A stretch of 64,000 bases of DNA from the IMG/VR virus record IMGVR_UViG_3300003702_000449; one strand, 5' to 3'. Source of the stretch: an uncultured virus (IMG/VR IMGVR_UViG_3300003702_000449). Lineage: Duplodnaviria > Heunggongvirae > Uroviricota > Caudoviricetes. Each line of letters starts with the position of its first letter. The stretch's first letter is position 1. A program made the position numbers and the translations under genes. The notes under the pieces are model-generated. The model made no database searches. It had not been told where the DNA came from and saw only the letters and a list, made by a program, of their open reading frames with translations. Shown here piece by piece: positions 6,966-60,620 of this stretch.

Positions 6966-6968
6966 AGT

Positions 6969-10270: not shown

Positions 10271-10272
10271 AA

Positions 10273-15414: not shown

Positions 15415-15416
15415 AC

Positions 15417-17468: not shown

Positions 17469-17469
17469 A

Positions 17470-17985: not shown

Positions 17986-18000
17986 ATATGTCCATCCCCC

Positions 18001-18974: not shown

Positions 18975-18977
18975 TAC

Positions 18978-20328: not shown

Positions 20329-20333
20329 ATTAC

Positions 20334-20864: not shown

Positions 20865-20879
20865 CGTACCTCGGGTTAA

Positions 20880-34133: not shown

Positions 34134-34528
34134 TATGATAATTCCTCATTCTGAAGCTTAGTCTGAGCCCTCTTCAGCTTCTTTAAGATAGGCTGTAACT
34201 GTGCTTGCCAGTATCTAGCCTGTCTCTGCATTTCAGCCCATTCAACCTTTCTTTCAGGAGACAAAGTTTTCTGCCAATCCACCATCTCTTTATAGTTTCC
34301 AGGTGAGTCCATATAACCTGTTACTCTTTCTTGCCTGAAATACTCAATATAGAGCTTGACTCCCTCTATTACCTCATCAATACTAAGGTCATCTAAACCT
34401 TCCTCTAAAGGAACATCACCACCAAAGTCTTCATCACTTAAAAGATGAGCCTCAGCAGTCTTTATAACATTGACATCTCTTCTACTTAGTATAGAAAAGA
34501 TACCACCAAACCTACTTTTACCTACCAT
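34133..34528 (-). CDS. RFGG family protein
   Basis: RFGGIFSIL...LKKLKRAQTKLQNEEL. Confidence 0.65.
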   Translation of the reverse strand: MVGKSRFGGIFSILSRRDVNVIKTAEAHLLSDEDFGGDVPLEEGLDDLSIDEVIEGVKLYIEYFRQERVTGYMDSPGNYKEMVDWQKTLSPERKVEWAEMQRQARYWQAQLQPILKKLKRAQTKLQNEELS

Positions 34529-34770
34529 TACTTACCAGCCTTATGCTGCTTATAGAAGTATTTTGCATCAGCCTGTGCAGCCTTCCTAGTAGGTTCATCC
34601 TGAGTAACATTTGCAAGTGCCTGCAGAGCACGTCCTGATGAAAGGTTTGACTTATGACCTTTCAAAGCCAGTGCCCTACGTTTCTTTGCAGCATAAGACT
34701 TCTTCCAACCAGTATGTTTAGACTTAGACTCTGCTGTCTTATACCATTTAGAGGAACTAGATCTTCCCAT
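34528..34770 (-). CDS. small basic protein
   Basis: GW.......RR.LALK......RALQAL....D......D..YF; K/R-rich. Confidence 0.6.
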   Translation of the reverse strand: MGRSSSSKWYKTAESKSKHTGWKKSYAAKKRRALALKGHKSNLSSGRALQALANVTQDEPTRKAAQADAKYFYKQHKAGK

Positions 34771-34909
34771 GGGTCTTTAGCTTACCACTCATTTGGGAAT
34801 CAATAGATCCCTTACCTTTCCTAGTATGCTTAGCAAGATCCTTTCTAGCTGCCTTAGCCTTCTTACTGAAACCAGCTTTCATTTTAGCCCAGGTGTCTGA
34901 CTTAGCCAT
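34757..34909 (-). CDS. 50-aa lysine-rich peptide (not in ORF track)
   Basis: MAKSDTWAKMKAGFSKKAKAARKDLAKHTRKGKG...; fills the gap after hddA. Confidence 0.55.
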   Translation of the reverse strand: MAKSDTWAKMKAGFSKKAKAARKDLAKHTRKGKGSIDSQMSGKLKTHGKI

Positions 34910-35936
34910 TTTCTTCACTTCCTATTGATTCTATTAGATTAAGAACGCCAATCTGTCTATCTGAGGTATGAACTATCTCAGCACCATTTGGAGCTACTCT
35001 TATAGTAATGCCTCCAATAGGTACAAGGGATATTTCACTGTACATCAAGAAGTATCCACCTCCTCCTAGTCCAATTAACTTGCCACCAAGTGCGCCTGCA
35101 TCAAGACACTTATTCCAAATATCAAACATTTCAGGAGTAGCTATTTCATGGTCCCTATGTATCTTTGATTCCCAATGTTCAGTAAATAAACTAGCAATCT
35201 CTTTATAACTACCAGAATGTAGATACCTTTCTATTTTATTCCCAATCACTTTAATTTGACTCAGAGACTCCAGCATAGTTTCATCAAATGCTTCAGTCTT
35301 CTCATTCTGTCTAATTGCTATGTCCAAACTAGTTCTAGTCTCATTAGTATAGACTAAATATAACTTATCTACAAATCTAGATATGTCTATAGTAGAAGTA
35401 CCTGACAGATCTTCTCCCTCTTCAGTCATTCCCCCTAATATAACTATATTTGCTCCGCCCTTAGCAGCAAAGAATTGATCCTGCATTCCACCTGGACTAT
35501 TAGCCATTTCCCTTTCAACATAAAAGGCTTCCCCAAATAGTCTTTCAGGAGTATAGACATCACCATCAATAAGAGCATTTAAACCCATTAAAAGGGCACA
35601 AGTAAATGAAGATGATCCACCTAGACCTGAGGATTCAGGTACATCACTAAATGTAGCGATTTCTAATCCACCTTCTTCAGGTAAGCCTATATGTCTAATT
35701 GCTTCTGCTGCAACTTTATTTTCAAGTTGGTCTAATCCTTCTTCAGTTGCATCTACTACTTCATTCTTAGAATACTTAAGATGTATTTTAGCTTCTCTAA
35801 TAGGATGTACTATAACATATACATAGAGATCGCAAGCAAAGCCTACTAAATATCCCCCATACTTATTATAGTAGGATGCAAAGTCTGTTCCCCCTCCACC
35901 TAAGGGTATTCTTAACGGTGCCCTAGTTATTATCAT
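34902..35936 (-). CDS. hddA: D-glycero-alpha-D-manno-heptose-7-phosphate kinase (GHMP)
   Basis: IITRAPLRI.LGGGGTD, DVP.SSGLGGSSS, G.QDQ.FAA.GG, GGKL.G.GGGG. Confidence 0.88.
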   Translation of the reverse strand: MIITRAPLRIPLGGGGTDFASYYNKYGGYLVGFACDLYVYVIVHPIREAKIHLKYSKNEVVDATEEGLDQLENKVAAEAIRHIGLPEEGGLEIATFSDVPESSGLGGSSSFTCALLMGLNALIDGDVYTPERLFGEAFYVEREMANSPGGMQDQFFAAKGGANIVILGGMTEEGEDLSGTSTIDISRFVDKLYLVYTNETRTSLDIAIRQNEKTEAFDETMLESLSQIKVIGNKIERYLHSGSYKEIASLFTEHWESKIHRDHEIATPEMFDIWNKCLDAGALGGKLIGLGGGGYFLMYSEISLVPIGGITIRVAPNGAEIVHTSDRQIGVLNLIESIGSEENG

Positions 35937-35946
35937 CCTTCCCCCC

Positions 35947-36405
35947 TTACCTTAATTCCTCATTCTGAAATTTATATAATCCCCTTTCTAACTTTCTGAC
36001 TATAGGATGTAGCCTGCCCATCCACCTACGACAGGCAGTTAGACGGTCAAAGTGTCCAGGATGTAAAGGATCTTTAGTATAAGTTCCATAAGTTCCTATT
36101 TCATATTCCTGAGCTTCAGGCATACGCATCCTGTTACATTCATCTTTTAGTTCATTATACCAACCTTTTACAAATGCTAAAACATCCTCAAGAGGCAAAC
36201 TAAGGATATAATCTGTAGTTATGAAATCAGTCCCTGGACTTCCTGGTCTTTCGGTTAAGTCAAAGCCTACATCCCCTCCAAATATAATCTCAGTATCAGG
36301 ACTAAGATCCTCTTCCTGGACCCAAACCTCAAACTGTCTAAGAGTATTTATATCTCTTCCACTAAGTACTGAAAAGAGACCACCAAACCTGTCTTTAGCT
36401 ACCAT
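35947..36405 (-). CDS. RFGG family protein
   Basis: RFGGLFSVL...LHPIVRKLERGLYKFQNEEL. Confidence 0.65.
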   Translation of the reverse strand: MVAKDRFGGLFSVLSGRDINTLRQFEVWVQEEDLSPDTEIIFGGDVGFDLTERPGSPGTDFITTDYILSLPLEDVLAFVKGWYNELKDECNRMRMPEAQEYEIGTYGTYTKDPLHPGHFDRLTACRRWMGRLHPIVRKLERGLYKFQNEELR

Positions 36406-36683
36406 TACCTTAATTCCTCTTCTGGTCCCTGGTCCATCTGAACTAATTCCATAATAGAATTGTCTAGAGGTCCATATACTCCCATAGGAATCCCTTCACC
36501 TTTACTTGTTGCTCTAGCTCTAACAATCCTCTGTAAGTCTACAATCCTGCCTATAGCTATTCCTATATCTATTCCACCAGACATATAAGATTCAATTATA
36601 AGTTTATGCTGTTCCCTAATCCAACGAGAATGTTCTAGGTCATTCATTAGGAATTGTCCATTCACTAACTTCTCTAGATCCAC
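36405..36683 (-). CDS. hypothetical protein
   Basis: Coupled ORF; start probably MNDLE. Confidence 0.5.
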   Translation of the reverse strand: MDLEKLVNGQFLMNDLEHSRWIREQHKLIIESYMSGGIDIGIAIGRIVDLQRIVRARATSKGEGIPMGVYGPLDNSIMELVQMDQGPEEELR

Positions 36684-36954
36684 CTCTAGGTCCCCCAGAA
36701 TGTAAAGGTAAAGAGTCTAAATCAGGCATAATTTCTTTTATGTCTCTTTTAAGACCCGGAACTAGTATTTGGTTTGCATCTAATTCTATTGTCTGACCTT
36801 TCTTAATTCTTCCCTTAAGTTCATTAAGCCACCACTCTTCATTAGCACTACTCCAATTAAGGACAGAAGAAGGCTTTGAAGCAGTTACTGTATAATAACC
36901 ATAGACAATCCGTCTATTTATTAAGTCATTAACTTCTTCTAAGTAATCATTCAT
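36640..36954 (-). CDS. hypothetical protein
   Basis: Coupled ORF (begins MNDYLEE). Confidence 0.5.
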   Translation of the reverse strand: MNDYLEEVNDLINRRIVYGYYTVTASKPSSVLNWSSANEEWWLNELKGRIKKGQTIELDANQILVPGLKRDIKEIMPDLDSLPLHSGGPRGGSREVSEWTIPNE

Positions 36955-37166
36955 TAGTCTTCCTCTTGAACATCCTCATTAGGAGTCCAGAGATTACAGA
37001 CTCCTCCCTCATTGATATGGCCTTTAACTAACTGGCAGGAATGACTATTAAAAGGCCCAAAGCTGCTACCTTTCAGGAACTGAACACAGTTCTTACAAAC
37101 TTCAGGTACTTCTCCCTTTCTATAATCTACGTCTCTTTTGGCGTAGACCGAAGTTTGGCTTTCCAT
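36954..37166 (-). CDS. HiPIP-like 4-Cys protein
   Basis: K..VDY....EVCKNCVQF...CQLVKGHI..GGVCNLW. Confidence 0.7.
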   Translation of the reverse strand: MESQTSVYAKRDVDYRKGEVPEVCKNCVQFLKGSSFGPFNSHSCQLVKGHINEGGVCNLWTPNEDVQEED

Positions 37167-37581
37167 TATTCAAACCCTTTATCTTATCAAAATTAGGCTT
37201 ATGGATATTAGCAAGAGGACTCTTTCCACTAAGTCCAGTCTTCATACCAAGATCAGTTTTACCACTAGGTTTAGGAGTCATACTGAAACCAGGAATTTGA
37301 CCTTTGGTAACTAATCTAAAGGCATCAGGAGGAATGAGTCCCCTATAAAATATATTATTATAGTCGACTTTAACTAGCCTCGAAGAATCAATTTTCTTAG
37401 AGTCTATTATAGCTAAAGCCATGCGCTTCATACCCTTCATAGCCTTCTCAACCTGAGATCTAGAAGGGAAAACACTTACAACATCTCCACTAGAGTACCT
37501 TCTAGGTTTTATCCCAGATCTTAGGAACTCATCAGTGAATGCTGCTGGGAAATAACAGTAGAGGTTTTTCCACTTAGCCAA
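37120..37581 (-). CDS. degenerate ART-fold protein with basic tail
   Basis: LYCY......FLRSGIKP...VSVF...IID...YRGLIPPDAF; the catalytic His is replaced. Confidence 0.45.
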   Translation of the reverse strand: MAKWKNLYCYFPAAFTDEFLRSGIKPRRYSSGDVVSVFPSRSQVEKAMKGMKRMALAIIDSKKIDSSRLVKVDYNNIFYRGLIPPDAFRLVTKGQIPGFSMTPKPSGKTDLGMKTGLSGKSPLANIHKPNFDKIKGLNNGKPNFGLRQKRRRL

Positions 37582-38138
37582 CCTTCCGCTCCTTCTAGAC
37601 CTCTGGGGTCATTTATATGTAGATTACCTTCTAAATAGTAGTGTCCAAGTATATCTAACATAGAAGAAAACTTACCACAATTTACAAGGCTCATTTCTAC
37701 TGAGACTTTATCTAGTACTCCTAGGCCACAGTCTCCAAGACTCCCATTGGAATCTTCCTTGACTCCTATTAGAGATCTTCTACCAGTCACTAAAAAATCT
37801 TCTAGGTCCCCAGTATTCTTAAATATAGGATAACAATCTCCATTTGCTAATAGAAACTTATCCTTTAATCCAGGAATACCTAAAACACCTCTATTAACTA
37901 TTATATTAGCTTCTACTAGTCTGACTTCCTTATACTTTCTACTTAGACTATCAAACTGGTTTCTCATATGGCCTACTAGAAGAACTATATCAGATAAGCC
38001 TACTTCTAGTAAATCATCTATAAGCCAAGTTATAAAAGGCTTGCCTGCAACTTCTACTAGAGGCTTAGCTCTATTAGCAGATATTTCTCCTAATCTAGTA
38101 CCTTTACCAGCACATAACAAAACTGCCTGTTGTATCAT
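37521..38138 (-). CDS. hddC: sugar-1-phosphate nucleotidyltransferase (HddC-like)
   Basis: AVLLCAGKGTRL....KPLVEVAGKPF, LANGD; heptose gene context. Confidence 0.75.
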   Translation of the reverse strand: MIQQAVLLCAGKGTRLGEISANRAKPLVEVAGKPFITWLIDDLLEVGLSDIVLLVGHMRNQFDSLSRKYKEVRLVEANIIVNRGVLGIPGLKDKFLLANGDCYPIFKNTGDLEDFLVTGRRSLIGVKEDSNGSLGDCGLGVLDKVSVEMSLVNCGKFSSMLDILGHYYLEGNLHINDPRGLEGAEGWLSGKTSTVISQQHSLMSS

Positions 38139-38249
38139 CTATTAACTACCTTTACTAGCTTTGAAACTGTATAACCAGCACATCCGCCTATTAAGCCTAT
38201 ACAACCAAACCAAAGAAAACTCTTATTAGAAATAGTGAATAACATCCAT

Positions 38250-39827
38250 CTACTGAACTCGTACTCTCCTACCATTAACCTCATTAAGTTGTGGTACATC
38301 ATTAAGGCTATGCCTGTAGTAATCAGAGGAAATAACACCAAACTCAACTTTACTTCTGTTCTTGAGGTAAATGACATACATATCTCTCTCAGGATTTAGA
38401 TTGGATACCCCAGTAATATCTGCTTCATACATACTAGAGTATTCTTCTATAGGTCTTTGATAATTCCGAGTCCAGAAGCCTTTCTCATATACTGGAACTA
38501 GAACCTCACCTTGAGTTTCATTATTCTGTCTAAAAGCATGTCTAGGTTCATACACTTGTATTAAGTTACTATAATTAGAATTAGTATCTCTTAATCTATA
38601 ATAAGTATTTAATAGGACATCCATATGCCCCCAAGTATGCGTATATATTATGGAATCTTCAGGCAAAGTACTGAACTCATTATACATCTGCCTCATAGTG
38701 GAAGGACTAGGATCTACTGACCTACCTATATCATAAAACCAAAGATTCATTCCTAATAAGCCTAGTCCACAGAGTGAAGCTACAACTAAACTAGGTTTAA
38801 AATTATATCTATCCAAATAATACTTAGCACAGATTCCACCTAAAATAGAAAGAAAAGCAATTGAAGGAACTACATAAGTTATCCATTGAGGAGGTCTACT
38901 TGCAAAATAGAAACCTGCAGGTAGTAAACACATAACTAAAAGTAACTTTATAAAAGATGAATTCTGTCTGTAACTTTCTCTTCCTCCTAATATATAAAAA
39001 GGTATTAAAATGCAAATTGATAAAAGTACCAATGAGAAGAATTCTTCTAGTCTGTATTGTAATACCTGTGTGGGATATACAGTAAGATTACCTATCATAC
39101 CTACAGAGGAAAATAGGAAAAACCATCTATCATTAGCTAAACCAGGAAAGTATGCATTTTCAGCACCTAGAAACCATTGAGTCCAACCAACCAATCCTAA
39201 AGAACTTACTAACAGAATCTTTAAGATATGAGGTCTGCCTTCAAGAGGAACCTTTACCATGTAATATAAACAAGGTAGTATAGCAAACATAACAAGTGGA
39301 TGAGTTGCTAAAGACAATCCAAATATAAATCCACTTAGATATAAAAGATTAGGTCTATGGTGCTTATAAGCCTTTATAAAATAATAAACTCCCACTACCA
39401 TAAACATAGTAGTCATTGTATAGACTTCAGGAATAACTCCCTGGGACCAAACTAGAAAAGAACTAGCAAAACATAATAGGCCTAAAGAAGCAGGTAACCT
39501 AGATTCAGTAGAGAATAACCTTATTGTGGCATAGATATATCCACAAGTTATAATAACTGAAATAGCACTTACTAAACCTAAGACCCAATAAGGATTAAAA
39601 CCAAAAGTATAATGGAAGACTTGCTCAAAGAACCAACCTATGGTTATAAACAGAGGATAACCACCTAATCCTGCTTTCTCAAATAGCATACTTGACACAA
39701 CATAATCAGGAGCATCCCCTGCTAATCCCATCCAAGTCATATCAGGTGCTATACCAAATAGATATACTACTGATACAAGTGCTAGTAATGTTCCAGGTAC
39801 TAAAACTCTAGTCATTATGTCTTTCAT
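38250..39827 (-). CDS. DUF2723/TMEM260-like GT-C membrane glycosyltransferase
   Basis: Y...AP..TW...GD..DY, GYPLF..IG, WSQ..IPEVY, GLSLATH; many TM helices and a soluble C-terminus. Confidence 0.8.
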   Translation of the reverse strand: MKDIMTRVLVPGTLLALVSVVYLFGIAPDMTWMGLAGDAPDYVVSSMLFEKAGLGGYPLFITIGWFFEQVFHYTFGFNPYWVLGLVSAISVIITCGYIYATIRLFSTESRLPASLGLLCFASSFLVWSQGVIPEVYTMTTMFMVVGVYYFIKAYKHHRPNLLYLSGFIFGLSLATHPLVMFAILPCLYYMVKVPLEGRPHILKILLVSSLGLVGWTQWFLGAENAYFPGLANDRWFFLFSSVGMIGNLTVYPTQVLQYRLEEFFSLVLLSICILIPFYILGGRESYRQNSSFIKLLLVMCLLPAGFYFASRPPQWITYVVPSIAFLSILGGICAKYYLDRYNFKPSLVVASLCGLGLLGMNLWFYDIGRSVDPSPSTMRQMYNEFSTLPEDSIIYTHTWGHMDVLLNTYYRLRDTNSNYSNLIQVYEPRHAFRQNNETQGEVLVPVYEKGFWTRNYQRPIEEYSSMYEADITGVSNLNPERDMYVIYLKNRSKVEFGVISSDYYRHSLNDVPQLNEVNGRRVRVQ

Positions 39828-41350
39828 TAGGCATAACTAAACATCTCAGGTCGCTGAAATAAATGAATCTTATCCCAAAGAAAGTTTCTAGTTTCTACAT
39901 ACTTTAATCCAGACTTTTCAACTTCACTAATTAAAGTCTTTGCATCTAACATACCTACATGAAATTCTCCATGCAGGAAAGTTTCAATTATATTTCCTGT
40001 TTTACTTGATGTATCAGGAGTAGATATAATAACTTTGCCACCTGGCTTAACACTCTTATACATCAAACTAGTAACTCTATCTAAATTCTCATTATCAAAG
40101 TGTTCTACTACTTCATTACAAAGTACCAAATCAAATGAGTCTATTCCCCCTGTTTGCACCAGACTTCTATGAGGTAATTGAGTAATGTCTGCTACCATCA
40201 GGGTGGTATTATCAGAATCAACATGGTTCTTAAAAAACTCTATTTTATGAGGATTAAGATCAACACCTACTTTCTTTAAAGTTAACTTATTATTGCCTCT
40301 AGGACAATCAAACATATTAAGGATAGGAGAAGATCCACAACCTAAGGAAAGAATTGATCCTCCCTGTGTCATAAGATCATCACCTTTAGCTAAATCATAA
40401 ATGTGCTCTCCTAGAGTCCTCTTAAATTTCTTATGAGGCATTCCAGAAGTCCATTCCCACCAATCAAAATCTCCATCATCATTCCCATGACCTAGATTCC
40501 AAACTGTATTGGGCAGACCTCTTAAAGAAATATTCTTATTTTCTGAATAGGTCCATATTTTGTGCATACCAAAATTCCATATAAAGGCAATACAACCTCC
40601 AACCAACGCACCAATATAATAAGGAATTGTTGTAAACTCATGGGCTCCAATAGTAGCACTTAAATATATAAGAGTACCTACTCCTCCTACTGTAGTATAT
40701 TTAACCACTCGAGTATATTTCATAAATGTAAGTTTAAGTAGTTGTATTATACCAGTAAATAAAATACTACTTCTACCTAATTTAGATTTACCTATTTCTC
40801 TTTTTCTAAAAGTATAAGGTAACCCAATAATAGAAACTGGACTCGTTCTTATTAAATATTCTAAGAAAGGCTTAGGTCCATCATTAATTTCAGTATCTTT
40901 TATAGTAGATCTTTTTATACCAAAGAATCCAGTCATCCTGTCCTTAATACCTGGACCTAAAGGAAAACTCATAACCTTACCAAAGGCACTTATAAGTCTA
41001 TTTAGGAAGCCATCAGCCGAGTCTGCCCTATAGCCATAAACCATATCATGGTAAATAAGAGACTGAGCTAAAGAGGAGGCTAATCCAGGAGGATGAGATC
41101 CATCTGCATCCATAACTATAATTAAATTGTCAGAAGCATAGCTTATTCCAAACTTTATAGCATCACTAACACTTCCAGATTCCTGTGAAACAACTAAAGC
41201 ATCTACTGCCTTAGCTTCCTTCTGGGTATTATCAGTAGAGCCATTATCACTAACTATAACAGAACATCTGGGATCCTCTTTTAGTTGACTAACAAGTCTC
41301 CCTATATTCCCTTCTTCATTTAAAGTAGGTACAACAACAGTATATCTCAC
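39827..41350 (-). CDS. fusion of polyprenol-phosphate glycosyltransferase (GT2, Dpm1-like), GtrA-like membrane domain and class I SAM methyltransferase
   Basis: VVPTLNE, SDNGSTD, VMDADGSH; KYTTVGGVGT...WNF.MHKIWTY; LSLGCG, GVD, FDLVLCNEVVEH, KPGG..IISTP. Confidence 0.85.
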   Translation of the reverse strand: MRYTVVVPTLNEEGNIGRLVSQLKEDPRCSVIVSDNGSTDNTQKEAKAVDALVVSQESGSVSDAIKFGISYASDNLIIVMDADGSHPPGLASSLAQSLIYHDMVYGYRADSADGFLNRLISAFGKVMSFPLGPGIKDRMTGFFGIKRSTIKDTEINDGPKPFLEYLIRTSPVSIIGLPYTFRKREIGKSKLGRSSILFTGIIQLLKLTFMKYTRVVKYTTVGGVGTLIYLSATIGAHEFTTIPYYIGALVGGCIAFIWNFGMHKIWTYSENKNISLRGLPNTVWNLGHGNDDGDFDWWEWTSGMPHKKFKRTLGEHIYDLAKGDDLMTQGGSILSLGCGSSPILNMFDCPRGNNKLTLKKVGVDLNPHKIEFFKNHVDSDNTTLMVADITQLPHRSLVQTGGIDSFDLVLCNEVVEHFDNENLDRVTSLMYKSVKPGGKVIISTPDTSSKTGNIIETFLHGEFHVGMLDAKTLISEVEKSGLKYVETRNFLWDKIHLFQRPEMFSYA

Positions 41351-42005: not shown

Positions 42006-42644
42006 CTATAAGTCATCCTCATCTATCTTAAGTTGCTTTCCAGTAACTGCGATAACTTCCTTGGTATCAAAGAGAGAGAAGAAATTGGGACCATGGATCT
42101 TTATCTTTCTCCTCTTTCCAGTACGCATATCAAAGAAGGTAATATTAGCAGTTCCACTTACTCCATAGCCATTACATCTGTCACACTTTTCATACTCAAT
42201 GGGATCAGACTTCTTAATGACTACTTCTTTTTCACCTTGACACTTTTGGCAAGGAATTTCCTTCCTATAACGGCAGGTCCCTCGCACATCTATAGCACGT
42301 CTTAAACGCTTATCAACAGTATCTATATGGTGAATACACACATACAAGTCAACATTTCGCTTTCTAGTCTGTGCTATAAAATAGGTGAATAACTTATTTA
42401 ACTTAGAAGCAGAAGTTCTAGCATCTAAATAGATGTAAGCCTCATCAAGGACCATTACGCAGTCAGATAATTCTTGGTCTAGCATATGATCCACAAAGAA
42501 CTGGGTATCTAACTGCGTATGAGGAAAGTTTACATGGACGTTAGATATAACATCCCTTCCCCTAGTAAATTCAAGGTAAGCAAGGGCGGTAGCACTTAAA
42601 GTTTTACCAGATCCCATTACTCCCTCAAAAGTGAATATAGGCAT
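42006..42644 (-). CDS. Zot / inovirus pI-like morphogenesis ATPase with Zn-ribbon insertion
   Basis: GVMGSGKT, VISN, VLDEA...DAR, QTRKRNVDL....H....DKRLR; CQKC...CDRC insert. Confidence 0.8.
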   Translation of the reverse strand: MPIFTFEGVMGSGKTLSATALAYLEFTRGRDVISNVHVNFPHTQLDTQFFVDHMLDQELSDCVMVLDEAYIYLDARTSASKLNKLFTYFIAQTRKRNVDLYVCIHHIDTVDKRLRRAIDVRGTCRYRKEIPCQKCQGEKEVVIKKSDPIEYEKCDRCNGYGVSGTANITFFDMRTGKRRKIKIHGPNFFSLFDTKEVIAVTGKQLKIDEDDL

Positions 42645-50625: not shown

Positions 50626-53600
50626 CTATATACTCCTCGAGATGCCTACTGTTGCTATCCCTACAACTACAAACATTATTAGGTAATAGACTGGGAATGC
50701 TCCTATAGTTACTCCAGCAAGCAGAGCTATACCTACACCTACTATCGTTAGCATGGGATTACCAGTAGCCACATAAGCTCCCAGACCAAGTATTACTGCA
50801 ATAAACAGAATCATTACACCCAAAATAGTATTAGGTGTCAGACCCATAGAAACTGAGGCCCTATCAAATATATTCATCCATCCAGGACTACTAACAGGAT
50901 CTCCAAAAGCATACCTAGGATTACCAGCAGCATTTATCCCAAAACTTTCTATATCGCCCAATAAGGATGGATTAGCTATGCTACTTACATCAGGAACTAG
51001 TGCATCACCCGCAAGCTCAGAAGAATCAACTGTTACATTAACATTGTCTGCTAAGGGGAAAGATATACTTGTTGAGTGATTAGCATTCCCAGATCTATCA
51101 GGCATATAGTAACCAGGAGGATTATTTAACTGGTACCAGAGTTGATTAGTCCCATCAACATCATACTTTAAGTAGTCAGTATAAGGGAAAGGCTTACTAG
51201 GACTTACAGACTTCCAGAAGTCCCAGTTATCACTTACATCAGCTAGAACCCTATTAAATCCTATAGTTTCTACCGTGCCATTCCTCAGACCTAATATAGG
51301 TCCTGTAGCAATAGTTTCAATCGTATATATACCATCTGTAGGAGCTAAGGCTGCCTCCTGAGCATTAGTCCAGTTAAGACTTAGGGGGTCTAGAGCAGTA
51401 GCAGTAGCTGAACTATAAGTAAGAGTTAACTTAGGTACATTTGGTGAGTTACACAGATTATAGTCACTATCTGCATATAAGGCCGTAAAGGTTGTAGAAG
51501 TTGTGCAAGCCGTACCTGGGAATGTTATAGAATTCCCAACTTCAATATCCACAGTCTCAATAGCTGAAGGGGCACTGTTACCAATATCATCCTCATGTCT
51601 AAGCATAAACTGAGTTATACCTGCAGCATTAATAGAAGCTAATCCTGCAGCATTCAGAGGAATATCGTTATAGGCACCAACAACTAGAGTAGAAGCAGTT
51701 AATGCTGAAAGCTGTACTTGCACTGTATAATTTAAGTAATCATAGTCTCCAACAACTAAAGGTTCAGATCCAGCTGCTCCAGCTTCCACTAGGAGTTGCC
51801 AGTCAGTACCCACATTTACACTGTCTATATAAATAGATAAGGTAGCAGCAGTAACAGTAGCATCACTAGGTAAATAACTAGTATCAAAGTTAGCCATATA
51901 TCTATAGATACGATAGTCATTATCACTAGTCCCGGTAAAGTTATATGCAGCTATATAAGGACTAGCTGTCAGACCCACAAATAGAGTATCATCATTAGGA
52001 TGGAACCCTATAGATGTGGTAGCTGAGCCTAATGCAGGACTAGGATCATCAAGTTTGGTACCAAAGACTCCAGTTAGTGTATTAAAGTTATAAACTGTCA
52101 AGTAAGGACCAACAGCATGGGATGCTGCTAAGTTAGTAGGACCAGAAGTATTTTCAGTTAGCCAAGCTACTCCAGTACCAGCCCCAGGTAATGCAGTAGT
52201 AGAAATCTTTGTACCAATAGCCCCTGCACTAAAGGGATATACTTCTAAGTAAGGGCTAGTATCTGTTACTATAGCTATATGAGACCCATCTGGACTAAAC
52301 TCAATGCCTGTAATTACTCCAGAAGGTATGTTACCTCCAGCAGGAGCTGAAGACTTAGAACTCCAAGAAGGGGTGCCTGCTCCTCCATTAGTTATAGCCC
52401 AGACATGCAAGTATGGACTAGTAGAACATCCAACTGCAACAAAAGTAGCATTAGTATTAATATCTACAGCATTACATTCAGCTCCTGGAGGACTCGTAGG
52501 TGCTGTTAAGGTACTAGTCCAGAAACCAGCTATAGCACCAGAGTTATCTATATCGTACATATAGACACCAGCACTATCAGTAGTTGCTGCTACTACTATA
52601 TTATCTCCAGTACCTATATCAAAGCCATTAACTCCTATTGATCCAACAGAGGTAGGATTGGGAGGAGTACCACTTATAACTCCTGTTGCGGGATCGAAGA
52701 CATAAGCCCACAGATAATTAGCGTTAGCAGCAGTACCTACAACAAGCCTAGTTTTATCAGATGTGAACATTGCATCTGTTCCAGCAGCAGCAGGAATAGT
52801 TGTAGGAGGATTAGAAGAAGAATCCCATTCTTTGTCTACTTCATCAAAAGCTTGAACTGTAAAGTAGGGTAGATCAGTATGTGCAAATACTGCATAGTCA
52901 GATCCTGACTGACTAAACGAACCTCCATTTACAGTACTAGACCAAGGTTCAAATATAATCAGTGCATCAGTTAAGGTTGCATTGAGTCCTCCAGCTTCGG
53001 TTGCCTTAACACTCCAATCTCCCGTCTGGATTCCATCGACAAGACAACTTACAACTACTGAAGTACCTCCTCCAGAAATAGGAGTACATGTTATAGGAGA
53101 AGTAGGAGCTCCTGATTTGAAGATTATTACATCCTCGGGAGGTGCAAACGTAGGACCAGGTAATCCAAGTCCAGTTAAGGTTAACTCTAAGCTACCAGAA
53201 TTACCTGCCATTGTAGGAGATATACTAGTAAACCCAAAAGGTATCTGGTCAATGCTAAAATTGTAATTCTCAGGAAGTACTATATCGTCTGGTACAATAC
53301 CTGTTACAAAAGGTTTAATTGCACTACCAGGTATAGTTATACTAATGGTTTCTGTAGGTGTACTAGGATTATACAGAACATGGGGAAGAAGTGTAATAGT
53401 AACTCTACTATCACTAGTCCTTACTACTTCGGAGACGTTCATATCATCTCTAACTGAGGTATTCCAGTTAGTAGAACCAGCTCCTAAACTTCCTGTTAAC
53501 CCATTAATTATATTCTGTCTCTGAGCATCAAAGGTTGCTCCTGCATCTACCCAATGAGTACCCCAAAGGTCTAATACTATAGTTTCCCCACCAGATTGTA

Positions 53601-56600
53601 TAATCTGAGCGTCTCCTATACTAGCACTATTGTCACCATGAATTACTATTAACTGAGGATCCCTGGTAGTTCCACCATACTCTGCCATATTAGCAGTCAT
53701 ATAGTCCGAACCACCTGTAGTATTATATTTAGTACCTAAATAATAAGAAGACTGTCTTATAGTTGGAGGGTCGTCTCCACCAATATAATCTAAATCGAAA
53801 CTAGAACGTAGATTAAAGTAAGTTATACCCCCAGGATTAAAACTATGTAATCCTCTCTCATTAAAGGCCATCATAGGAAAATGTTCGTTCCAAACATGTG
53901 GAGCACCTTGGTTATATATAGAAGGTTGCATTGAAATAGGAAATCTATTACCTAATTCCGTATTGTACCATCTACCATCTTTAAAGTCTGATAGTGTTAG
54001 AATGTCTACATTACCTGAAAGGTCAGGTATGTTAGAATCAGTTAATACTACGGTACTTCCTAAACCAGATACGTTAGCAGAATCCGATGTGAATATTTTT
54101 AAGTAGGCTGAATGGTAACCTTTATTTGCACAGGGCTCACTATAATTTACTGTTAGTCTGGCACCTCTACCACCATCTTCGAAAGCCTGAATATCTACAT
54201 AGGCATTTAACCCTGTTGCGCCTTGTCTCCACATAGGAGCACCATTACGAAAGTGGTCGATAACTATCATAAAGCTAGAGGCACCAGTAGGGTCAATCGA
54301 ATCTATGCCTCTATCATTTAATCTAAATTGATTTTCCTTTGGTCCAAATACCTGTGATGTTGATATATCGTTAATAATCAAATCATTAGCAAATGGAGGG
54401 TCTCCTGAGGGAGTAGCAGTTCTAAAGTTTGAAACTACACTATTATTTGCTACATCGCCAGGACTAAAGCCTATTAAGCTTATATGTATAGGAAAATCTG
54501 CAGTTCCCAAAGTATCATATTTAGCACTTGCCTTAAAGTCGATATAAGCTGAAGTAATAATGGAATCGCTAGGTATACTAGATGTATCAAAGGACAGCGT
54601 AACGTCAGAACGGTCAGTATAGGCGTTGTTCTCAAAACCTAACTGAGACTTCACTCGGTTAGCACCTAAAGTCATACTAGTTTGAGCATCGTAAGGATGT
54701 CCAGGTGACTGGTTTGAAGGATCCCCTAGTATCTCTTTCCAACCTTGGTTCCATCCTCCAGATGTATGGTTAGAGGTGCTAAAGTTTCCATCTTGATGCG
54801 TAGCAGACGTCTGTGTAACAAGAGTGCCTGTAGGACAAGAATAATCAGGTAGACTAGAAGTATCGAATCCATAATACATCTTAGATAGATAGGACCAGGC
54901 ACCTGGTGTATTATCTTTCTGACTTAATTGAATTGCTGAACCACCACTTTGAGTATAATGAACTGTAGTTCCATTACCTCCGTACTGTAGGTATCTCCAC
55001 ATACCTGTATAGAAACCAGGTTGATAATTTACTATATCCCCATCCATACCTGTACCTGGGGCCCAGTTAACTCCTGTATAGAAGGTACTTACTGAGTTAT
55101 TGTTCACAGTAGAGGTATTATCAACTTCAGCACAGGGAAGAACATAGCGTACTTCTAAGTAAGGATCTCTTTCGAGTCCAGTAGGACCCCAGTTATCTTC
55201 TGCATTATATGCAGAAATACCATTCATTCTATTAGCAGCCGTCCACCACGCAAAGTCATTATCTATATCCATACCGAGGGCTAGTTGGAAACTAGTATTT
55301 TCAGTATCTTTCTTTATATAGTCTTTGCCTACATCAGTAAGGTCCCATACTTCATATCCGCCACCTCTATCCTTACCAAAAGACCCAACGTTAGGCGTCG
55401 CGTTCGCTACATGGAAAGGACCCATGTTCTCCATAAGCTTATCATTACTTAATCTCATGTAGGATGTACGATGCATATCCCCATTAGTGAAAGTAGTTTC
55501 TGATTGAGGATCAAAATCAATTAAAGCTAAGCCCTGTTTTCTCCAACGGTAATTTCCAAAACCTCCATAATCTCTATCATTGTAGTGGTAAGCATAATTT
55601 ATATAAAGTCCAACTCTACCTTCTATAATAAAAGCATCATCAGGTATCGCAGAAGTATCAAAACTAAACATCATCCTTTCGCCTACTTCATATAAATTAT
55701 AAGAGGCGTCTGTTTGTATGATAGTTCTCATCGGAGACCAGCTATCACCTCCCCCATTTCCAAAGTTACTAACATTACTACGAGTTATTTGATCCCAAGT
55801 TAGACCAGGATATCCTGCATTTTGAGTTTGACCATATCCATCCCAACTATCTTGACCTGGTACTCCATCTGCATCAGGATAGAATTTCATCTGAGTTGCT
55901 GGACACATCTTTAATGTATCAGTTGCATAGGTAATTACTAATTGAGGAGAAGGTTCTGATGACTCTGAAGTATGGAACCTCATTTCAGTATCTGAAGTAG
56001 CGGCATGAGCGTGCATATCATCCATAAACATAAATAGTTCAGTCCAGCCTGTTCTATTTACATGGACATTTGTCATTCTAGGCCAAGAAGTATGACCCAT
56101 GTTATTCATATTCATGGACCTAAGGGGAAAGGTCTCTAGAACGTTGTGACCTTGCTCACATATATCCGTTACAGCCCTTAATCTATGAGCATCATCTCCA
56201 GGAGAAGTTTTATACTGCTCAGCTGTCCATATATCTGTTGCATCTATAGGCCAATAACCTGTATAAGCTCCAGCAGTTTCACTTGACTGAGGATTAGCAT
56301 AAGGTTGCTTTCCATGTGCCCAACCTATTCCAAATAATATGTGCTGGTCTCCAGTTGTTAATTTAGAATGGCAAGCTAACTTTAAGTCTGCTTCTAAAAT
56401 CAGAGCATCATCAGGTAAAGATGAAGTATCAAACCTTACATGGGAAAAGTTATACCTACCAACACTATATTTAACTTCCATATCAGGCCAAGTTGTATTA
56501 GCGCTGCAACTACTTACAGTAGGAGCAGTAGCATAACAGTTTACCTCACCATCATCGGTACCACTTGATACACTGAAAGTAACAGTGGGGTCAATAAGGT

Positions 56601-58251
56601 AAGGATAAGAAATTTCAGGAACTATAGAATCATCAAAATTCATTCTTATTCTATATTCATCCAATATCTCCCAAGAACCTGCATCAAACCTTTCTTGGTC
56701 TGAACCTATAAGTACAGGTCTAGGAACTACTAGTCTAGGTACCGAACCTCCAAATTCGCTTTCCTCTGTAAACCAATCTAAAGTTATAAAACCATCTATA
56801 GGCTCATAGAATAGGTCAGTATGTCCAGTTACAGCATTTCCCTGAAGATCAAGTCTTAAAGGTTGTACTCCAAATCCTAGAGGTTGGAATACGAAATCAT
56901 ATTCTTGTTGACCTAAAGGATTAGTAACTTCAGCAGTTAACTTAATGCCAGCATTGTTTAATGTATAAATCCATTTAAGTCCTTCATATTCATACCAAGC
57001 AGTATTTCCTTCATAACTAAGAGGAGTAGGAGTATACCATCTACCTCCATATTCTCCATCACTACTTAAGAAAGATATGGTACTCTGATTACCCTCAACC
57101 TTAAACCAGGGATGAGTAACCATAGACCAATTTTCTGGATTATCTGGATCTTGAATTAAGTTTAAACTAGTTTCTCTCCAGTCTCCTTCATCATCTTTAT
57201 AATGTATATTAGGTTCATAAGTACTTCTTAAAGTACCAATTGCTATCTGGAAAGTCTTTGAATCTCTAGTTCTTAAATCTATCCTTTCAGAGAAACTTTC
57301 TACTTCAGGTAACTCACCAAAATATTCTTCAATTAGGCCATCTTCATTTATCTTATAAGCCTTATTTATCAGATAAGAAAACTTGGACGCAAGACTATTA
57401 GCACCTGCAGCCTCATTCTCACTATAACTTCTAATTGGAAGTACTGACCTACCAATGTCCCTAGTCCATCCACTTACAATTCTAGTATAGTGCATACTTC
57501 CGACTACATTAAGTAGTGCCATTTCCTCTAACGAAGTCTCTGTCTTTAACTTCCAAAAAGCTCCCTTATCATAATGCCAACTAGTTCCCCCTGTACCTAT
57601 ATATCTAGGTTCGCCTAGAATAGCCTGAACTTCGTCTCCAGTCATTCCTTCAACTATACTATCTGGAAAGACTCCATAATCATCTATTATTCCAGTTACA
57701 ACCTGATGCTGTCCAGGAGTCTGTCCCTCTACCATTTGATCTATAGTAACAAACCCTGCATTTTCAGGATCATCTGGATCTTCTAAAAATATATCTTCCC
57801 AAGTAGCCGCAGGCGTTACTAATTCTAAGGTAATATATCCAGTGGGTATATACTGCTCTAATTCCTCTACGTCACTATTAGTCTCTTTATTAAATACAGG
57901 ATAGGAACGATAAGGAGCTACAGTATTATCCTCCCTAAGAAATTCTCCTAATATATTAGTTTCTCTATCAACTCTTTCGTTTAGAAGTCCGTCCCAAGTG
58001 TATAGTTCATAAAACCATTCTTTACCATACTTATCTATATGTTGAACTTCTAATACTAGCTTTCCTTGAGCAGAACGGACATCTACTATTCTAAAGTCTG
58101 CACTATCATTATGGTTATGATTAGCTTGGTCGTGAGGCTCGCTTTCGCTATGAGCAAAAAGTTGATTAGGTACTACTATAATAGCTAAAGTAAATAGCAC
58201 TATACTTAGCCAAGTAATTAACCAAGACTTATCTAATCTATGACGGATCAT
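50626..58251 (-). CDS. giant membrane-anchored adhesin/spike (SmpA-like, DNRLRE-like repeats, IPT/TIG, 7-blade propeller, 3-TM anchor)
   Basis: Signal peptide; GMT.DEV..ILG.P; five FDTS.(L/I)P.D units; SISP...LTLTG IPT pattern; seven ..F.P....(L/V)AV....PY..VY.F blades; C-terminal TMs. Confidence 0.8.
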   Translation of the reverse strand: MIRHRLDKSWLITWLSIVLFTLAIIVVPNQLFAHSESEPHDQANHNHNDSADFRIVDVRSAQGKLVLEVQHIDKYGKEWFYELYTWDGLLNERVDRETNILGEFLREDNTVAPYRSYPVFNKETNSDVEELEQYIPTGYITLELVTPAATWEDIFLEDPDDPENAGFVTIDQMVEGQTPGQHQVVTGIIDDYGVFPDSIVEGMTGDEVQAILGEPRYIGTGGTSWHYDKGAFWKLKTETSLEEMALLNVVGSMHYTRIVSGWTRDIGRSVLPIRSYSENEAAGANSLASKFSYLINKAYKINEDGLIEEYFGELPEVESFSERIDLRTRDSKTFQIAIGTLRSTYEPNIHYKDDEGDWRETSLNLIQDPDNPENWSMVTHPWFKVEGNQSTISFLSSDGEYGGRWYTPTPLSYEGNTAWYEYEGLKWIYTLNNAGIKLTAEVTNPLGQQEYDFVFQPLGFGVQPLRLDLQGNAVTGHTDLFYEPIDGFITLDWFTEESEFGGSVPRLVVPRPVLIGSDQERFDAGSWEILDEYRIRMNFDDSIVPEISYPYLIDPTVTFSVSSGTDDGEVNCYATAPTVSSCSANTTWPDMEVKYSVGRYNFSHVRFDTSSLPDDALILEADLKLACHSKLTTGDQHILFGIGWAHGKQPYANPQSSETAGAYTGYWPIDATDIWTAEQYKTSPGDDAHRLRAVTDICEQGHNVLETFPLRSMNMNNMGHTSWPRMTNVHVNRTGWTELFMFMDDMHAHAATSDTEMRFHTSESSEPSPQLVITYATDTLKMCPATQMKFYPDADGVPGQDSWDGYGQTQNAGYPGLTWDQITRSNVSNFGNGGGDSWSPMRTIIQTDASYNLYEVGERMMFSFDTSAIPDDAFIIEGRVGLYINYAYHYNDRDYGGFGNYRWRKQGLALIDFDPQSETTFTNGDMHRTSYMRLSNDKLMENMGPFHVANATPNVGSFGKDRGGGYEVWDLTDVGKDYIKKDTENTSFQLALGMDIDNDFAWWTAANRMNGISAYNAEDNWGPTGLERDPYLEVRYVLPCAEVDNTSTVNNNSVSTFYTGVNWAPGTGMDGDIVNYQPGFYTGMWRYLQYGGNGTTVHYTQSGGSAIQLSQKDNTPGAWSYLSKMYYGFDTSSLPDYSCPTGTLVTQTSATHQDGNFSTSNHTSGGWNQGWKEILGDPSNQSPGHPYDAQTSMTLGANRVKSQLGFENNAYTDRSDVTLSFDTSSIPSDSIITSAYIDFKASAKYDTLGTADFPIHISLIGFSPGDVANNSVVSNFRTATPSGDPPFANDLIINDISTSQVFGPKENQFRLNDRGIDSIDPTGASSFMIVIDHFRNGAPMWRQGATGLNAYVDIQAFEDGGRGARLTVNYSEPCANKGYHSAYLKIFTSDSANVSGLGSTVVLTDSNIPDLSGNVDILTLSDFKDGRWYNTELGNRFPISMQPSIYNQGAPHVWNEHFPMMAFNERGLHSFNPGGITYFNLRSSFDLDYIGGDDPPTIRQSSYYLGTKYNTTGGSDYMTANMAEYGGTTRDPQLIVIHGDNSASIGDAQIIQSGGETIVLDLWGTHWVDAGATFDAQRQNIINGLTGSLGAGSTNWNTSVRDDMNVSEVVRTSDSRVTITLLPHVLYNPSTPTETISITIPGSAIKPFVTGIVPDDIVLPENYNFSIDQIPFGFTSISPTMAGNSGSLELTLTGLGLPGPTFAPPEDVIIFKSGAPTSPITCTPISGGGTSVVVSCLVDGIQTGDWSVKATEAGGLNATLTDALIIFEPWSSTVNGGSFSQSGSDYAVFAHTDLPYFTVQAFDEVDKEWDSSSNPPTTIPAAAGTDAMFTSDKTRLVVGTAANANYLWAYVFDPATGVISGTPPNPTSVGSIGVNGFDIGTGDNIVVAATTDSAGVYMYDIDNSGAIAGFWTSTLTAPTSPPGAECNAVDINTNATFVAVGCSTSPYLHVWAITNGGAGTPSWSSKSSAPAGGNIPSGVITGIEFSPDGSHIAIVTDTSPYLEVYPFSAGAIGTKISTTALPGAGTGVAWLTENTSGPTNLAASHAVGPYLTVYNFNTLTGVFGTKLDDPSPALGSATTSIGFHPNDDTLFVGLTASPYIAAYNFTGTSDNDYRIYRYMANFDTSYLPSDATVTAATLSIYIDSVNVGTDWQLLVEAGAAGSEPLVVGDYDYLNYTVQVQLSALTASTLVVGAYNDIPLNAAGLASINAAGITQFMLRHEDDIGNSAPSAIETVDIEVGNSITFPGTACTTSTTFTALYADSDYNLCNSPNVPKLTLTYSSATATALDPLSLNWTNAQEAALAPTDGIYTIETIATGPILGLRNGTVETIGFNRVLADVSDNWDFWKSVSPSKPFPYTDYLKYDVDGTNQLWYQLNNPPGYYMPDRSGNANHSTSISFPLADNVNVTVDSSELAGDALVPDVSSIANPSLLGDIESFGINAAGNPRYAFGDPVSSPGWMNIFDRASVSMGLTPNTILGVMILFIAVILGLGAYVATGNPMLTIVGVGIALLAGVTIGAFPVYYLIMFVVVGIATVGISRSI

Positions 58252-59530
58252 TTAATTTCGCTCCAAAGGCTGCCGTAGTGTCTATAACCTTATCGTAAGC
58301 CTGCCCAATTTTATGGCTTGTTACTTCACTAGAAGTGTTTGAAAGGACATCTGCAGAATCTTCTTGTCTAACTGTTATATAGTTACTTGAGGCGTTATAG
58401 AAACTCTTTGAGTAAGATTCTTCAGCAGTAGCACTATAATAAACCCCTGCAGTTCCATCCTCCTCATTATGAGTCCAAGTTCCAATATAGTTACCACCTA
58501 CTCCAGGGGCTGTAAGAGTTAAAGTATTATTGCCTCCAGCTACTAAAGCTGACTGGTAGCCTAAATCGAATGAGGCCCCTTTACCAAAGACTGTCCCTGT
58601 CTCATTAGTATCTACTTTAAAGTTCTGTTTAATCTCGAATCTCCAGCTACTACCAGGTTCTAATACAGCTGCATCTGCAGTTACAATCCCATCAAATCCA
58701 GGAAAATAGTTATGGAATGTATCAGTATCAGCCCCTCCAGTATATAGACTATAAGGTAGAGATTCTCCTGCTGCAAGACTATCAGCATGGAACCACCACT
58801 GACCAGTTTCATACCAAGACTGTTCTCCTAAAGGTACTATAGTATTAGTACCAGCTGCAACAGCTGTTACTTCTACCTTTAACCAATAAGCAGCAAAAGA
58901 CTGGTGATTTTCCTTACCCCAGGCTCCACCTGTAGGCATAGTCCAACTAATACTATTATTCCCTACAGTCTTAAAACCATAATCATTACTGTCTAAAGTA
59001 CTATCAAGTACTCCTGAAAATCCTACCCAACTAGTACAAGTAGTTGCATTAGACGTATCACAGTATTTCCAGTTAGTAGTTAGATTATAATCAGTTGCTG
59101 TAGAAACAACTAAACGCATCATTCTTCCAGGATTATGTAAAGCAAATTCATACTCTTCATTTAATTGATAAGGGAATTCCATATCATTGGTAGTATTATT
59201 AGTAGCATCAGTAGTATCATCAGCAGCTAGTCTATTATAAGCTTTCTGCATATTTATCTTTAAAGAAGAGGGCATATTAGGTACATCAAAGGTACCTTGA
59301 TGCAAGTGTGCATTTAAAGCATCTGGAGCTATATATCCAGTATCAATTAAGGTTTGAGCTGATAAACCAAAATTCATAATAGCATCATTAACAGCAATAC
59401 TCTGAGTATTCTGAGCTGTCATCTTCCACTGGACTAAACTACCAGTTATACTAGCTCCTATCAAGAAAACAGAGAAAAAGGCAGTTAATAGAAGAAGGCC
59501 CCTCTTTTTATTTTTAGACTTACTAAACAA
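58238..59530 (-). CDS. secreted surface protein, apparent N-terminal half of a split adhesin
   Basis: Signal/TM; beta-rich; ends FGAKLNDPS, matching the propeller linker FGTKLDDPS of the next gene. Confidence 0.7.
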   Translation of the reverse strand: MFSKSKNKKRGLLLLTAFFSVFLIGASITGSLVQWKMTAQNTQSIAVNDAIMNFGLSAQTLIDTGYIAPDALNAHLHQGTFDVPNMPSSLKINMQKAYNRLAADDTTDATNNTTNDMEFPYQLNEEYEFALHNPGRMMRLVVSTATDYNLTTNWKYCDTSNATTCTSWVGFSGVLDSTLDSNDYGFKTVGNNSISWTMPTGGAWGKENHQSFAAYWLKVEVTAVAAGTNTIVPLGEQSWYETGQWWFHADSLAAGESLPYSLYTGGADTDTFHNYFPGFDGIVTADAAVLEPGSSWRFEIKQNFKVDTNETGTVFGKGASFDLGYQSALVAGGNNTLTLTAPGVGGNYIGTWTHNEEDGTAGVYYSATAEESYSKSFYNASSNYITVRQEDSADVLSNTSSEVTSHKIGQAYDKVIDTTAAFGAKLNDPS

Positions 59531-59531: not shown

Positions 59532-60620
59532 TTAAGCCATCCTAGACATTATAAAGGTTACCCCAAATAGAACCAAAATAAAGAAGAATACAGCAAAGAC
59601 TAGTCCGATAGGAATAAGTCCTAACATACTTCCAGCTAAAATTAGAGGTATGCCAGTAACCATAGCAGGAGTAACTGCCTGAGTTACATTAAAGATCATT
59701 CCAAGTATAGATATACCTATAAGAACGAAACCTATACCTCCAATAATCATACCTGTAGCCTTTGGATTTCCCTCTGAGTCCTCCTGTTCACCAAATAAAG
59801 CTAAGCCTAATGCATCTAAATTAGTAGACATACTCTCAGGTAAATTTCCCTCTAAGAAATCTTGTCCTTTAGGAGCTCCTGTATACGCTGTAGGTTCCTC
59901 AGCTATAGAAGCAGTAAATGCAAAAATATCTGGAACTAGAGTTCTAACCCCAGGAATAACCTTCATTGCAATAGTAGCACCAGCAACACTAAGTCTATCA
60001 CCTAAGTTAGTTATTGTAGTATACTCCTGACCTGAAGCTATAGAAGCATTCTCAGTAATTTCAAGTATCTTACTCCCAAGAGAGTCTAGAGTAGTTCCTC
60101 CTAAAGTACCATCTATCCATATACTAGTATCATCTACTGATACTTTAGACTCATATGAGTTAGTAGAATCAACTGTAGAAAATAGAATAGGATTAGCACA
60201 GATACAAACCTTTAACTTATCCATATTCCAAGTTAAACCCTGATTTACCACACCCGCAGCAGTAAAGTACATAGCCTGATAAGCATGACCATAATAGAAT
60301 ATCTGTCTTATACCTCTAATAGTATCAGAAATTACAATTGGAGGTCCAGACTCAGTAACTTCTAGGATTAATTGTACTGCGAAGGCTCGCCTTGGATCTT
60401 CACTAGGAACCACAGCATAATTAACATTATATTCCACTAAGATAAGTAAATCATCAGCCTCTAAATAATTTCTAAAGACTGCAACCTGGTGTAACTTAAT
60501 AGAATCAGGGTTAGTAATAGCAAAGACTGGATTAGCAGCAAAGCTAGCCAGAACTATTGCTATAAGTATAAATATTAAGTGAAATCTACGTACTACCATA
60601 CCTGAACCTAGTAAGTCCAT
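59532..60620 (-). CDS. membrane-anchored surface protein (signal + 3-TM C-terminal anchor)
   Basis: C-terminal anchor resembles that of the 2541-aa protein (G..P...). Confidence 0.7.
   Translation of the reverse strand: MDLLGSGMVVRRFHLIFILIAIVLASFAANPVFAITNPDSIKLHQVAVFRNYLEADDLLILVEYNVNYAVVPSEDPRRAFAVQLILEVTESGPPIVISDTIRGIRQIFYYGHAYQAMYFTAAGVVNQGLTWNMDKLKVCICANPILFSTVDSTNSYESKVSVDDTSIWIDGTLGGTTLDSLGSKILEITENASIASGQEYTTITNLGDRLSVAGATIAMKVIPGVRTLVPDIFAFTASIAEEPTAYTGAPKGQDFLEGNLPESMSTNLDALGLALFGEQEDSEGNPKATGMIIGGIGFVLIGISILGMIFNVTQAVTPAMVTGIPLILAGSMLGLIPIGLVFAVFFFILVLFGVTFIMSRMA

Follow-up and report, generated by a model that had tools for sequence, protein, structure and literature searches.

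IMGVR_UViG_3300003702_000449 is the record of an uncultured virus, a linear sequence of 71,461 bases with an estimated completeness of 95%, the first 64 kb of which were analyzed here as one stretch (hereafter, the window). On the evidence of sequence comparison, two overlapping genes in this window encode the two halves of one membrane-anchored protein family. The first half is a protein of 430 residues (the front half), while the second consists of residues 1768–2541 of a 2541-residue protein (the back half). Between them lies an insert (52951–58240) of 5290 nucleotides (nt). We consider it probable that the two chains, once exported, fold up with each other in trans. A loop at the tip of a nested protein would thereby become a free end bearing a long, swappable arm, on an apparently non-tailed virus with a pI-like ATPase. 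A preliminary description of this DNA had correctly placed both open reading frames (ORFs), the codon of residue 1768 (starting at 52950), and the insert; the two ORFs overlap by 14 nt. The assembly is sound, since contigs from two other studies cross the first junction (X2 record 15 and X4 record 27) and one of them (X4 record 27) also crosses the second. In the window, a second in-frame stop lies three codons past the stop of the 430-aa gene, so stop readthrough is unlikely.

The two genes and the domains they share

As for the outermost domain, comparison by hhalign with a LamG-like profile of six rows places residues 273–328 of the small protein on model positions 1–67 (98.7%) and residues 2304–2399 of the large protein on positions 76–171 (98.1%). 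Residues 2109–2280 of the large protein cover positions 44–185 of the CBM96/DNRLRE-like model (99.7%). Of the 185 CBM96-like positions, the first 43 are missing from the back half, as are about 70 of the 172 LamG-like ones, and both missing parts are located in the small protein. Each fold is therefore incomplete in one chain, with its missing element in the other, confirming the earlier proposal that the two domains are divided between the proteins. The front CBM96-like part is carried by a whole-protein alignment to P0070 (P-numbers designate homologous proteins), which ends at residue 805, where the alignment of the C-terminal half begins. No match to PF24517 or PF06848 above cut-off was found for the split CBM96-like copy in the 2541-aa protein or in P0017, and the intact copies in the inserts of two related loci (L003 and L005) pass PF06848. 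In one CBM96, loss of the N-terminal strand impairs both the fold and binding (PMC9971899).

The propeller region at the start of the back half gives WD40-type matches in the PDB, with E values down to 1e-9. Seven blades were counted by eye, and a blade hidden Markov model scores above 3 bits on three of the seven in the window (blades 4, 5, and 7); in L005, it finds six of seven. As for the likeness to blade 7 claimed earlier, the 430-aa protein ends in 12 residues of which 8 are identical to the strand preceding blade 7 of the large protein (two-sequence BLAST, E = 0.30, weak alone); the register of blade 1 was set by eye. We infer that the outer strand absent from blade 7 is supplied by the terminal motif of the small protein.

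A full scan with the 430-aa protein yielded 124 homologs. In 57 of them, a single chain combines the N-terminal domains with C-terminal sequence of the large protein (LamG-like part or anchor), and 13 of these 57 also contain the CBM96-like part. The front-half profile aligns to residues 457–805 of P0070 (probability 100%) and the back-half profile to residues 805–1190 (99.8%); the two abut at residue 805, which places the propeller and the insert in a short hairpin. The one-chain homolog P0017 (754 aa), modeled with AlphaFold2 (pLDDT 86.7), contains a single discontinuous LamG-like domain spanning residues 256–617, with 162–167 aligned residues and Z scores of 15.4–15.5. Its matches include 4dqa (Z 15.5, rmsd 2.8, 167 aligned residues), PAPP-A (Z 15.4), and laminin LG domains (Z 13–14). 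Nested within this domain is a CBM-like domain (residues 323–509), which matches 8wab (Z 14.8, rmsd 3.4, 163 aligned residues) and the alginate CBM96 7vbo (Z 12.7, rmsd 3.4, 155 aligned residues). The two outer domains are thus nested in a natural one-chain homolog, which bears out the nested architecture of the preliminary description.

Uninterrupted homologs, which that description proposed to look for, were therefore found, but none of the 124 contains a propeller. A back-half profile search of 8000 candidates returned 14 proteins, with lengths of up to 1624 aa, none of which joins a front half to a back half. Accordingly, of the ancestral protein of ~1204 aa envisaged earlier, the common ancestry of the halves stands, while the propeller-bearing chain itself remains a presumed intermediate, because no one-chain protein with a propeller was found. 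A word-seeded search of 7996 candidates revealed no longer form of the 430-aa protein, a result that is uninformative, as the full scan found many. P0017 has no match in 50,697 phage records. The ESM Atlas gave no usable match for the 430-aa protein and one lead for P0017 (0.78), a LamG plus CBM96 cluster. Searches for related loci in viral contigs (with single proteins and with alignments) and in genomes (with P0017) found none. A match to SSV19 B210 was weak (E = 0.41, membrane helices) and was not used.

The N-terminal domain of the 430-aa protein is itself interrupted, by a β-sandwich (residues 96–238) that resembles a domain of LME-1 phage orf18 (PDB 9efk; E = 5.7e-9, and Z 18.2 for P0017) and that is elsewhere or missing in some homologs (e.g., P0105 and P0112). 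In the one-chain homologs P0022, P0026, P0061, P0073, P0035, P0046, and P0056, CBM-like and other modules occupy differing nested positions.

Conservation of the split and selection on its halves

At least six related loci (L001–L006) were confirmed among 599 candidate stretches. The motif used to find them held no stop, so a one-chain form could have appeared; a further locus, L009, was found with a pattern that held the stop. Two genome matches of the junction pattern (L007 and L008) were unrelated by tblastn and were dropped. Among the matches listed (the window, L001–L006, and L009), a true stop after Asp-Pro-Ser and an overlapping next gene are present in 8 of 8 loci. The ATG of that gene lies inside the codons of the Asp-Pro-Ser region in six of the eight, and for L004 and L006 the likely start is a TTG that comes one codon before. 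The inserts of the five complete loci measure 5290, 5179, 5650, 2380, and 5317 nt, and in all five the IPT-like domain ends exactly where blade 1 resumes, with residue-exact junctions. Across the 124 homologs, the motif G-x-K-x-x-D-P-(S/T) is terminal in 10, which are 25–55% identical, and internal in none. By these comparisons, the split is a fixed trait of the lineage and not an interruption peculiar to this genome.

Sequence divergence between the loci is uneven. The front half of the CBM96-like domain is 67–86% identical between the window and L001–L004, as against 23–50% for the two front domains (N1 and N2), and its proportion of nonsynonymous differences (pN) is 0.09–0.22 at a synonymous proportion (pS) of 0.49–0.70; pN reaches 0.35–0.45 in the N-terminal domains. 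Because pN is low at such values of pS, this reflects constraint and not recent transfer. In L005 and L006, identity drops to 18–29%, no better than elsewhere in the small protein. In four of six loci, no other long stretch of that protein is as constrained as the orphan front half. The back CBM96 half is 65–67% identical in L003/L004, with 24–28% for the intact copies in the inserts. Purifying selection acts on both orphan CBM96 halves. Moreover, the two diverge together (r = 0.96, 2/120 permutations; 10 pairs from 5 loci), and the N-terminal domains of the small protein do not track (r = 0.16, 43/120 permutations).

The two proteins might instead act apart, with the back half completing its folds from its own chain or its own copies. 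Some propellers can close on six blades without a seventh outer strand, and the intact CBM96-like domains in the large protein might swap strands. Yet the missing CBM96-like and LamG-like positions sit in the small protein and not in the back half, and the constrained orphan front half (4/6 loci) tracks the orphan half encoded by the other gene. We therefore regard independent action as rather unlikely. Reassembly in trans, one of the options raised in the preliminary description, appears to be the likely mode in view of the conserved split, selection, and co-divergence.

Several observations weigh against reassembly in trans or against the history that we attach to it. A quick tree of the N-terminal domains (75 rows chosen for having these domains complete) forces at least two changes between split and unsplit forms. 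The split forms are not one clade on these domains (approximately unbiased test, p = 0.00044, 12 versus 20 rows), so recombination or repeated origin is needed; spread of one junction module by recombination is probably likelier than repeated origin, because the ending is identical. The propeller (r = 0.82) and the front LamG part (r = 0.79) also track, so that co-inheritance of the module explains part of the co-divergence; the LamG halves correlate less (r = 0.63, 7/120), and co-divergence is based on only five related loci. Conservation of the terminal strand is confounded because start signals overlap it, the same bases also encoding the GGAG box and start codon of the next gene. Taken alone, the front CBM96-like part matches weakly (0.4–17%), and in the P0017 model some of it (residues 336–363) is of low confidence. 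Finally, the order of events is a reconstruction, since no one-chain homolog with a propeller is available (0/124 and 0/14).

Exchange or removal of the insert

Removal of the insert at the RNA or protein level, by splicing, recoding, or ligation, would yield a one-chain spike. The junctions are residue-exact in 5/5 complete loci, as splicing requires, but other features of the locus do not fit such joining. There is no Rfam match in the window or in four loci, self-splicing group I and II introns included. Junction RNAs pair no better than chance in 5/5 loci, where 46–70% of random pairs are as low, and the end bases of the insert are not conserved, stop excepted. The second junction also lacks the His-Asn before Cys/Ser/Thr that an intein would show, and the insert brings along a signal peptide-like segment and a start context of its own. 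Joining at either level is thus very unlikely.

Excision or inversion of the insert in DNA, which would toggle between a short and a long spike, would suit an insert that acts as a cassette across relatives. However, the best exact match between the junctions is 6–8 nt in 4/4 loci, with no shared repeat longer than 8 nt and none flanking them among the listed repeats; the preliminary description had likewise seen no clear junction repeat. None of 13 joints in four DNA runs links the two junctions (these are contigs, which drop rare forms), contigs from other studies run through the junctions, and the joined-junction pattern has no match in viral contigs. With no junction repeat, intron, or joined DNA found, excision is unsupported, and the DNA-level removal entertained earlier appears highly improbable.

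Rather, comparison of relatives indicates that the insert is exchanged among them by recombination and not excised. Between L001 and L009, identity is 89–94% for residues 1–600 of the large protein and 29–35% for the small one. Identity between X4 record 27 and the window is about 98% over 52835–58354, and beyond 58354 the two diverge; another contig of the X4 run is unlike the window over 51920–52376. The arm of L005 starts with a different domain. This locus also contains a separate gene for an exported protein (14788–15474) homologous to residues 50–147 of the 2541-aa protein (42% identity). Its module, the one with which the arm of the window begins, may be where the new signal peptide and front module came from. 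Receptor change therefore seems to proceed via recombination of the insert, which is seen between relatives, and not via the excision-based switch first suggested. In the signal peptide of the large protein, a short conserved Asp-Lys/Arg-Ser-Trp motif (window 58213–58240) lies ahead of the hydrophobic segment in 7/8 loci, L005 being the one without it.

The virus record, a proposed mechanism, and known systems

All 44 listed ORFs of at least 150 aa in the window are on the minus strand, and PolA, a second polymerase, and a reductase are encoded in it. A pI-like (Zot-family) ATPase belongs to the same putative virion module as the split pair, which lies three to four genes downstream of it in L002–L004 and L009. 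Small membrane-protein genes surround the pair near this ATPase in the window, L002–L004, and L009, and in related loci a gene sized like the 362-aa membrane gene of the window lies directly upstream of the pair (Table 1). The one terminase family searched for, PF03237, is found in neither of two linear records (the 71.5-kb record of the window and the related 78.8-kb record of L009), and none of 51 further ORFs in the window matches a head or tail PHROG. This suggests that the two records represent a group of large non-tailed viruses. The two runs holding at least half of the region's words are hydrothermal-vent metagenomes, and the record may derive from one of them.

This setting bears on whether the halves, once assembled, form a virion spike or a virus-displayed protein of the host cell surface that acts in exclusion or adhesion. 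Cellular surface proteins often contain CBM96/DNRLRE and LamG domains (PMC9971899), and no virion of this group has been seen. On the other side, small membrane-protein genes and a pI-like ATPase lie nearby, as in the virion module proposed for IME1 viruses, and the fold matches of the P0017 model include phage tail proteins. We consider host-surface display unlikely. Since the carrier is a virus record, "spike" fits better than the "adhesin" of the preliminary description, with its cellular sense.

Other features of the record were noted alongside. A replication and metabolism set (1831–21317 and 31843–41350) comprises the reductase, PolA with an N-terminal extension, a B-type-like second polymerase, a Cas4-like nuclease, and a helicase. 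By eye, these stretches also contain one cluster of 7-deazaguanine-type modification genes (QueC/D/E/F- and FolE-like) and another for heptose/sugar modification. Numerous short acidic genes related to one another occupy 22701–50263. The pI-like ATPase has an inserted zinc finger-like segment (weak DnaJ-type matches). A 2114-aa protein encoded at 61220–67564 of the record, extending beyond the window, has an acidic N-terminus, repeats rich in Pro/Gly/Thr, and an InlB B-repeat-like domain (PF18998) at its C-terminus. In L003, L004, L005, and L009, the equivalent position is likewise occupied by very long genes. Scans for promoters and terminators yielded no more than expected by chance.

Table 1. 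Features of the split pair and of neighboring genes (window coordinates)
Feature	Coordinates	Strand	Basis
pI-like (Zot-family) ATPase, same putative virion module	42006..42644	-	PF05707 above cut-off; M13 pI PHROG E = 7e-10
Large gene (2541 aa) with a signal peptide-like segment of its own, the inserted arm, the back half, and a C-terminal membrane anchor	50626..58251	-	ORF, hydropathy
C-terminal hydrophobic helices (about three), membrane anchor	50629..50847	-	Hydropathy; helices 683–753 in P0017 model
LamG/ConA-like sandwich, second part (residues 2304–2399)	51055..51342	-	hhalign 98.1%
CBM96/DNRLRE-like sandwich, second part (residues 2109–2280)	51412..51927	-	hhalign 99.7%
Seven-blade β-propeller without the outer strand of the last blade (residues 1768–2107)	51931..52950	-	WD40-type matches; blade count by eye
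Insert, 5290 nt: signal peptide-like segment, N-terminal module, several CBM96/DNRLRE-like domains (residues ~557–1545), Ig-like, IPT/TIG-like (ends at residue 1767)	52951..58240	-	Domain profiles, loci
14-nt overlap: start codon of large gene (+1 frame) within Asn-Asp-Pro-Ser codons	58238..58251	-	ORFs, loci
Front-half gene, 430 aa: N-terminal hydrophobic segment (10–33, signal peptide-like), no C-terminal anchor	58238..59530	-	ORF, hydropathy
Terminal strand (residues 417–430), putative outer strand closing blade 7	58241..58282	-	BLAST, motif, blade HMM
CBM96/DNRLRE-like sandwich, first part (residues ~366–414), purifying selection	58289..58435	-	Alignments, pN/pS
LamG/ConA-like sandwich, first part (residues 273–328)	58547..58714	-	hhalign 98.7%
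β-sandwich (residues 96–238) inserted in N-terminal domain of 430-aa protein	58817..59245	-	Homolog comparison, fold match
362-aa membrane protein gene, upstream of 430-aa gene	59532..60620	-	ORF list; tblastn matches from L001, L004, L005

In the mechanism that we propose, nested insertions would have built an anchored surface protein with a LamG-like base, a CBM96-like domain inside it, and the propeller inside that; the family as a whole seems to grow by repeated loop insertion. The nested chain would run outward to the tip and return to the anchor, and because both chain ends would then lie at the base, any addition at the tip would have to return. A break in the tip loop would lift this limit and make a long arm possible. 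The front half would become the 430-aa exported protein ending in the propeller-closing strand. The back half would form the last third of another exported protein, equipped with a signal peptide of its own, and the gene overlap would probably couple translation 1:1. After export, the chains would zip together, the small one giving the first LamG-like and CBM96-like strands and the closing propeller strand, and the large one the remainder of the domains and the membrane anchor. The freed end at the tip would bear an arm of 0.8–1.9 thousand residues, made of carbohydrate-binding-type and Ig-like domains and exchanged by recombination. We lean slightly toward the broader view of a branched spike in a large non-tailed marine virus lineage, in which a nested protein, cut at its tip and re-zipped across three domains, would form a socket for exchangeable host-range-arm cassettes of any length.

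An important implication concerns gene fission inside folded domains, which is usually read as decay or assembly error; here, selection keeps it across relatives that are 25–55% identical. This suggests that a nested protein may escape a topological limit by breaking its tip, re-zipping in trans, and extending freely. The pair, which would be a natural two-part docking pair, is likely to be the attachment apparatus of an undescribed group of 70–80 kb pI-ATPase viruses, and split "pseudogenes" in such genomes should be treated with caution, as they may be working pairs. If the branched-spike view is true, three domains of a naturally split protein would be assembled outside the membrane, and receptor modules would be changed by a route other than tail-fibre C-terminal swapping, shufflons, or diversity-generating retroelements.

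A split viral protein of this kind was not encountered in a literature search that covered few subscription papers. When chaperone-usher and type V pili assemble by donor-strand complementation, a terminal strand likewise completes the fold of a neighbor. However, this process concerns a single Ig-type domain, forms polymers, and is driven by a chaperone or protease, with no broken nested protein. One-chain members of the family itself (e.g., P0017, P0027, P0070, and P0099) have the N-terminal domains, LamG-like base, and C-terminal anchor, often with a nested CBM96-like domain, but have no propeller, break, or long N-terminal arm of the window type.

In gene content, the window recalls the IME1 viruses of Dehalococcoidia. 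No tailed-phage hallmark was found in IME1s either, and their pI-like ATPase is encoded next to small membrane proteins and exported proteins of adhesion type (bioRxiv 10.64898/2026.09.15.751708, accessible part, as for what follows on IME1s). However, they are 21–28 kb long and integrate, whereas the window record is 71.5 kb (78.8 kb for L009), with its own PolA, reductase, and DNA-modification cluster; the adhesion proteins described for them have CARDB and PEP-CTERM domains, with no split spike mentioned in that part of the report. Pleolipovirus VP4/VP5 is also a membrane-anchored, host-recognizing surface protein with a C-terminal anchor, but it is a V-shaped fusion protein with one transmembrane helix (PMC10599561), whereas the P0017 model matched β-sandwich folds. 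No pleolipovirus spike is among the P0017 fold matches listed.

Close parallels come from two cellular systems. The propellers of Sec13 and Seh1 are incomplete and are completed in trans by domain invasion motifs of their partners (Nup145C/Sec31/Sec16 and Nup85, respectively; PMC8907234), as proposed here. In that case, the partner contributes an entire blade, and the two are unrelated eukaryotic proteins of the cytoplasm, whereas the virus pair would share one propeller strand and the halves of two sandwiches, derived from the same ancestral gene and located outside the membrane. In the RTX adhesins FrhA and MpIBP, a split Ig-like domain projects an inserted ligand-binding domain outward (PMC10865825), as would be the case here, but with one chain and one level of nesting instead of three levels, a chain break, and two genes. 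Propeller completion in trans and projecting split domains are thus both known, and the virus pair would combine them over three nested domains, in two products of one ancestral gene.

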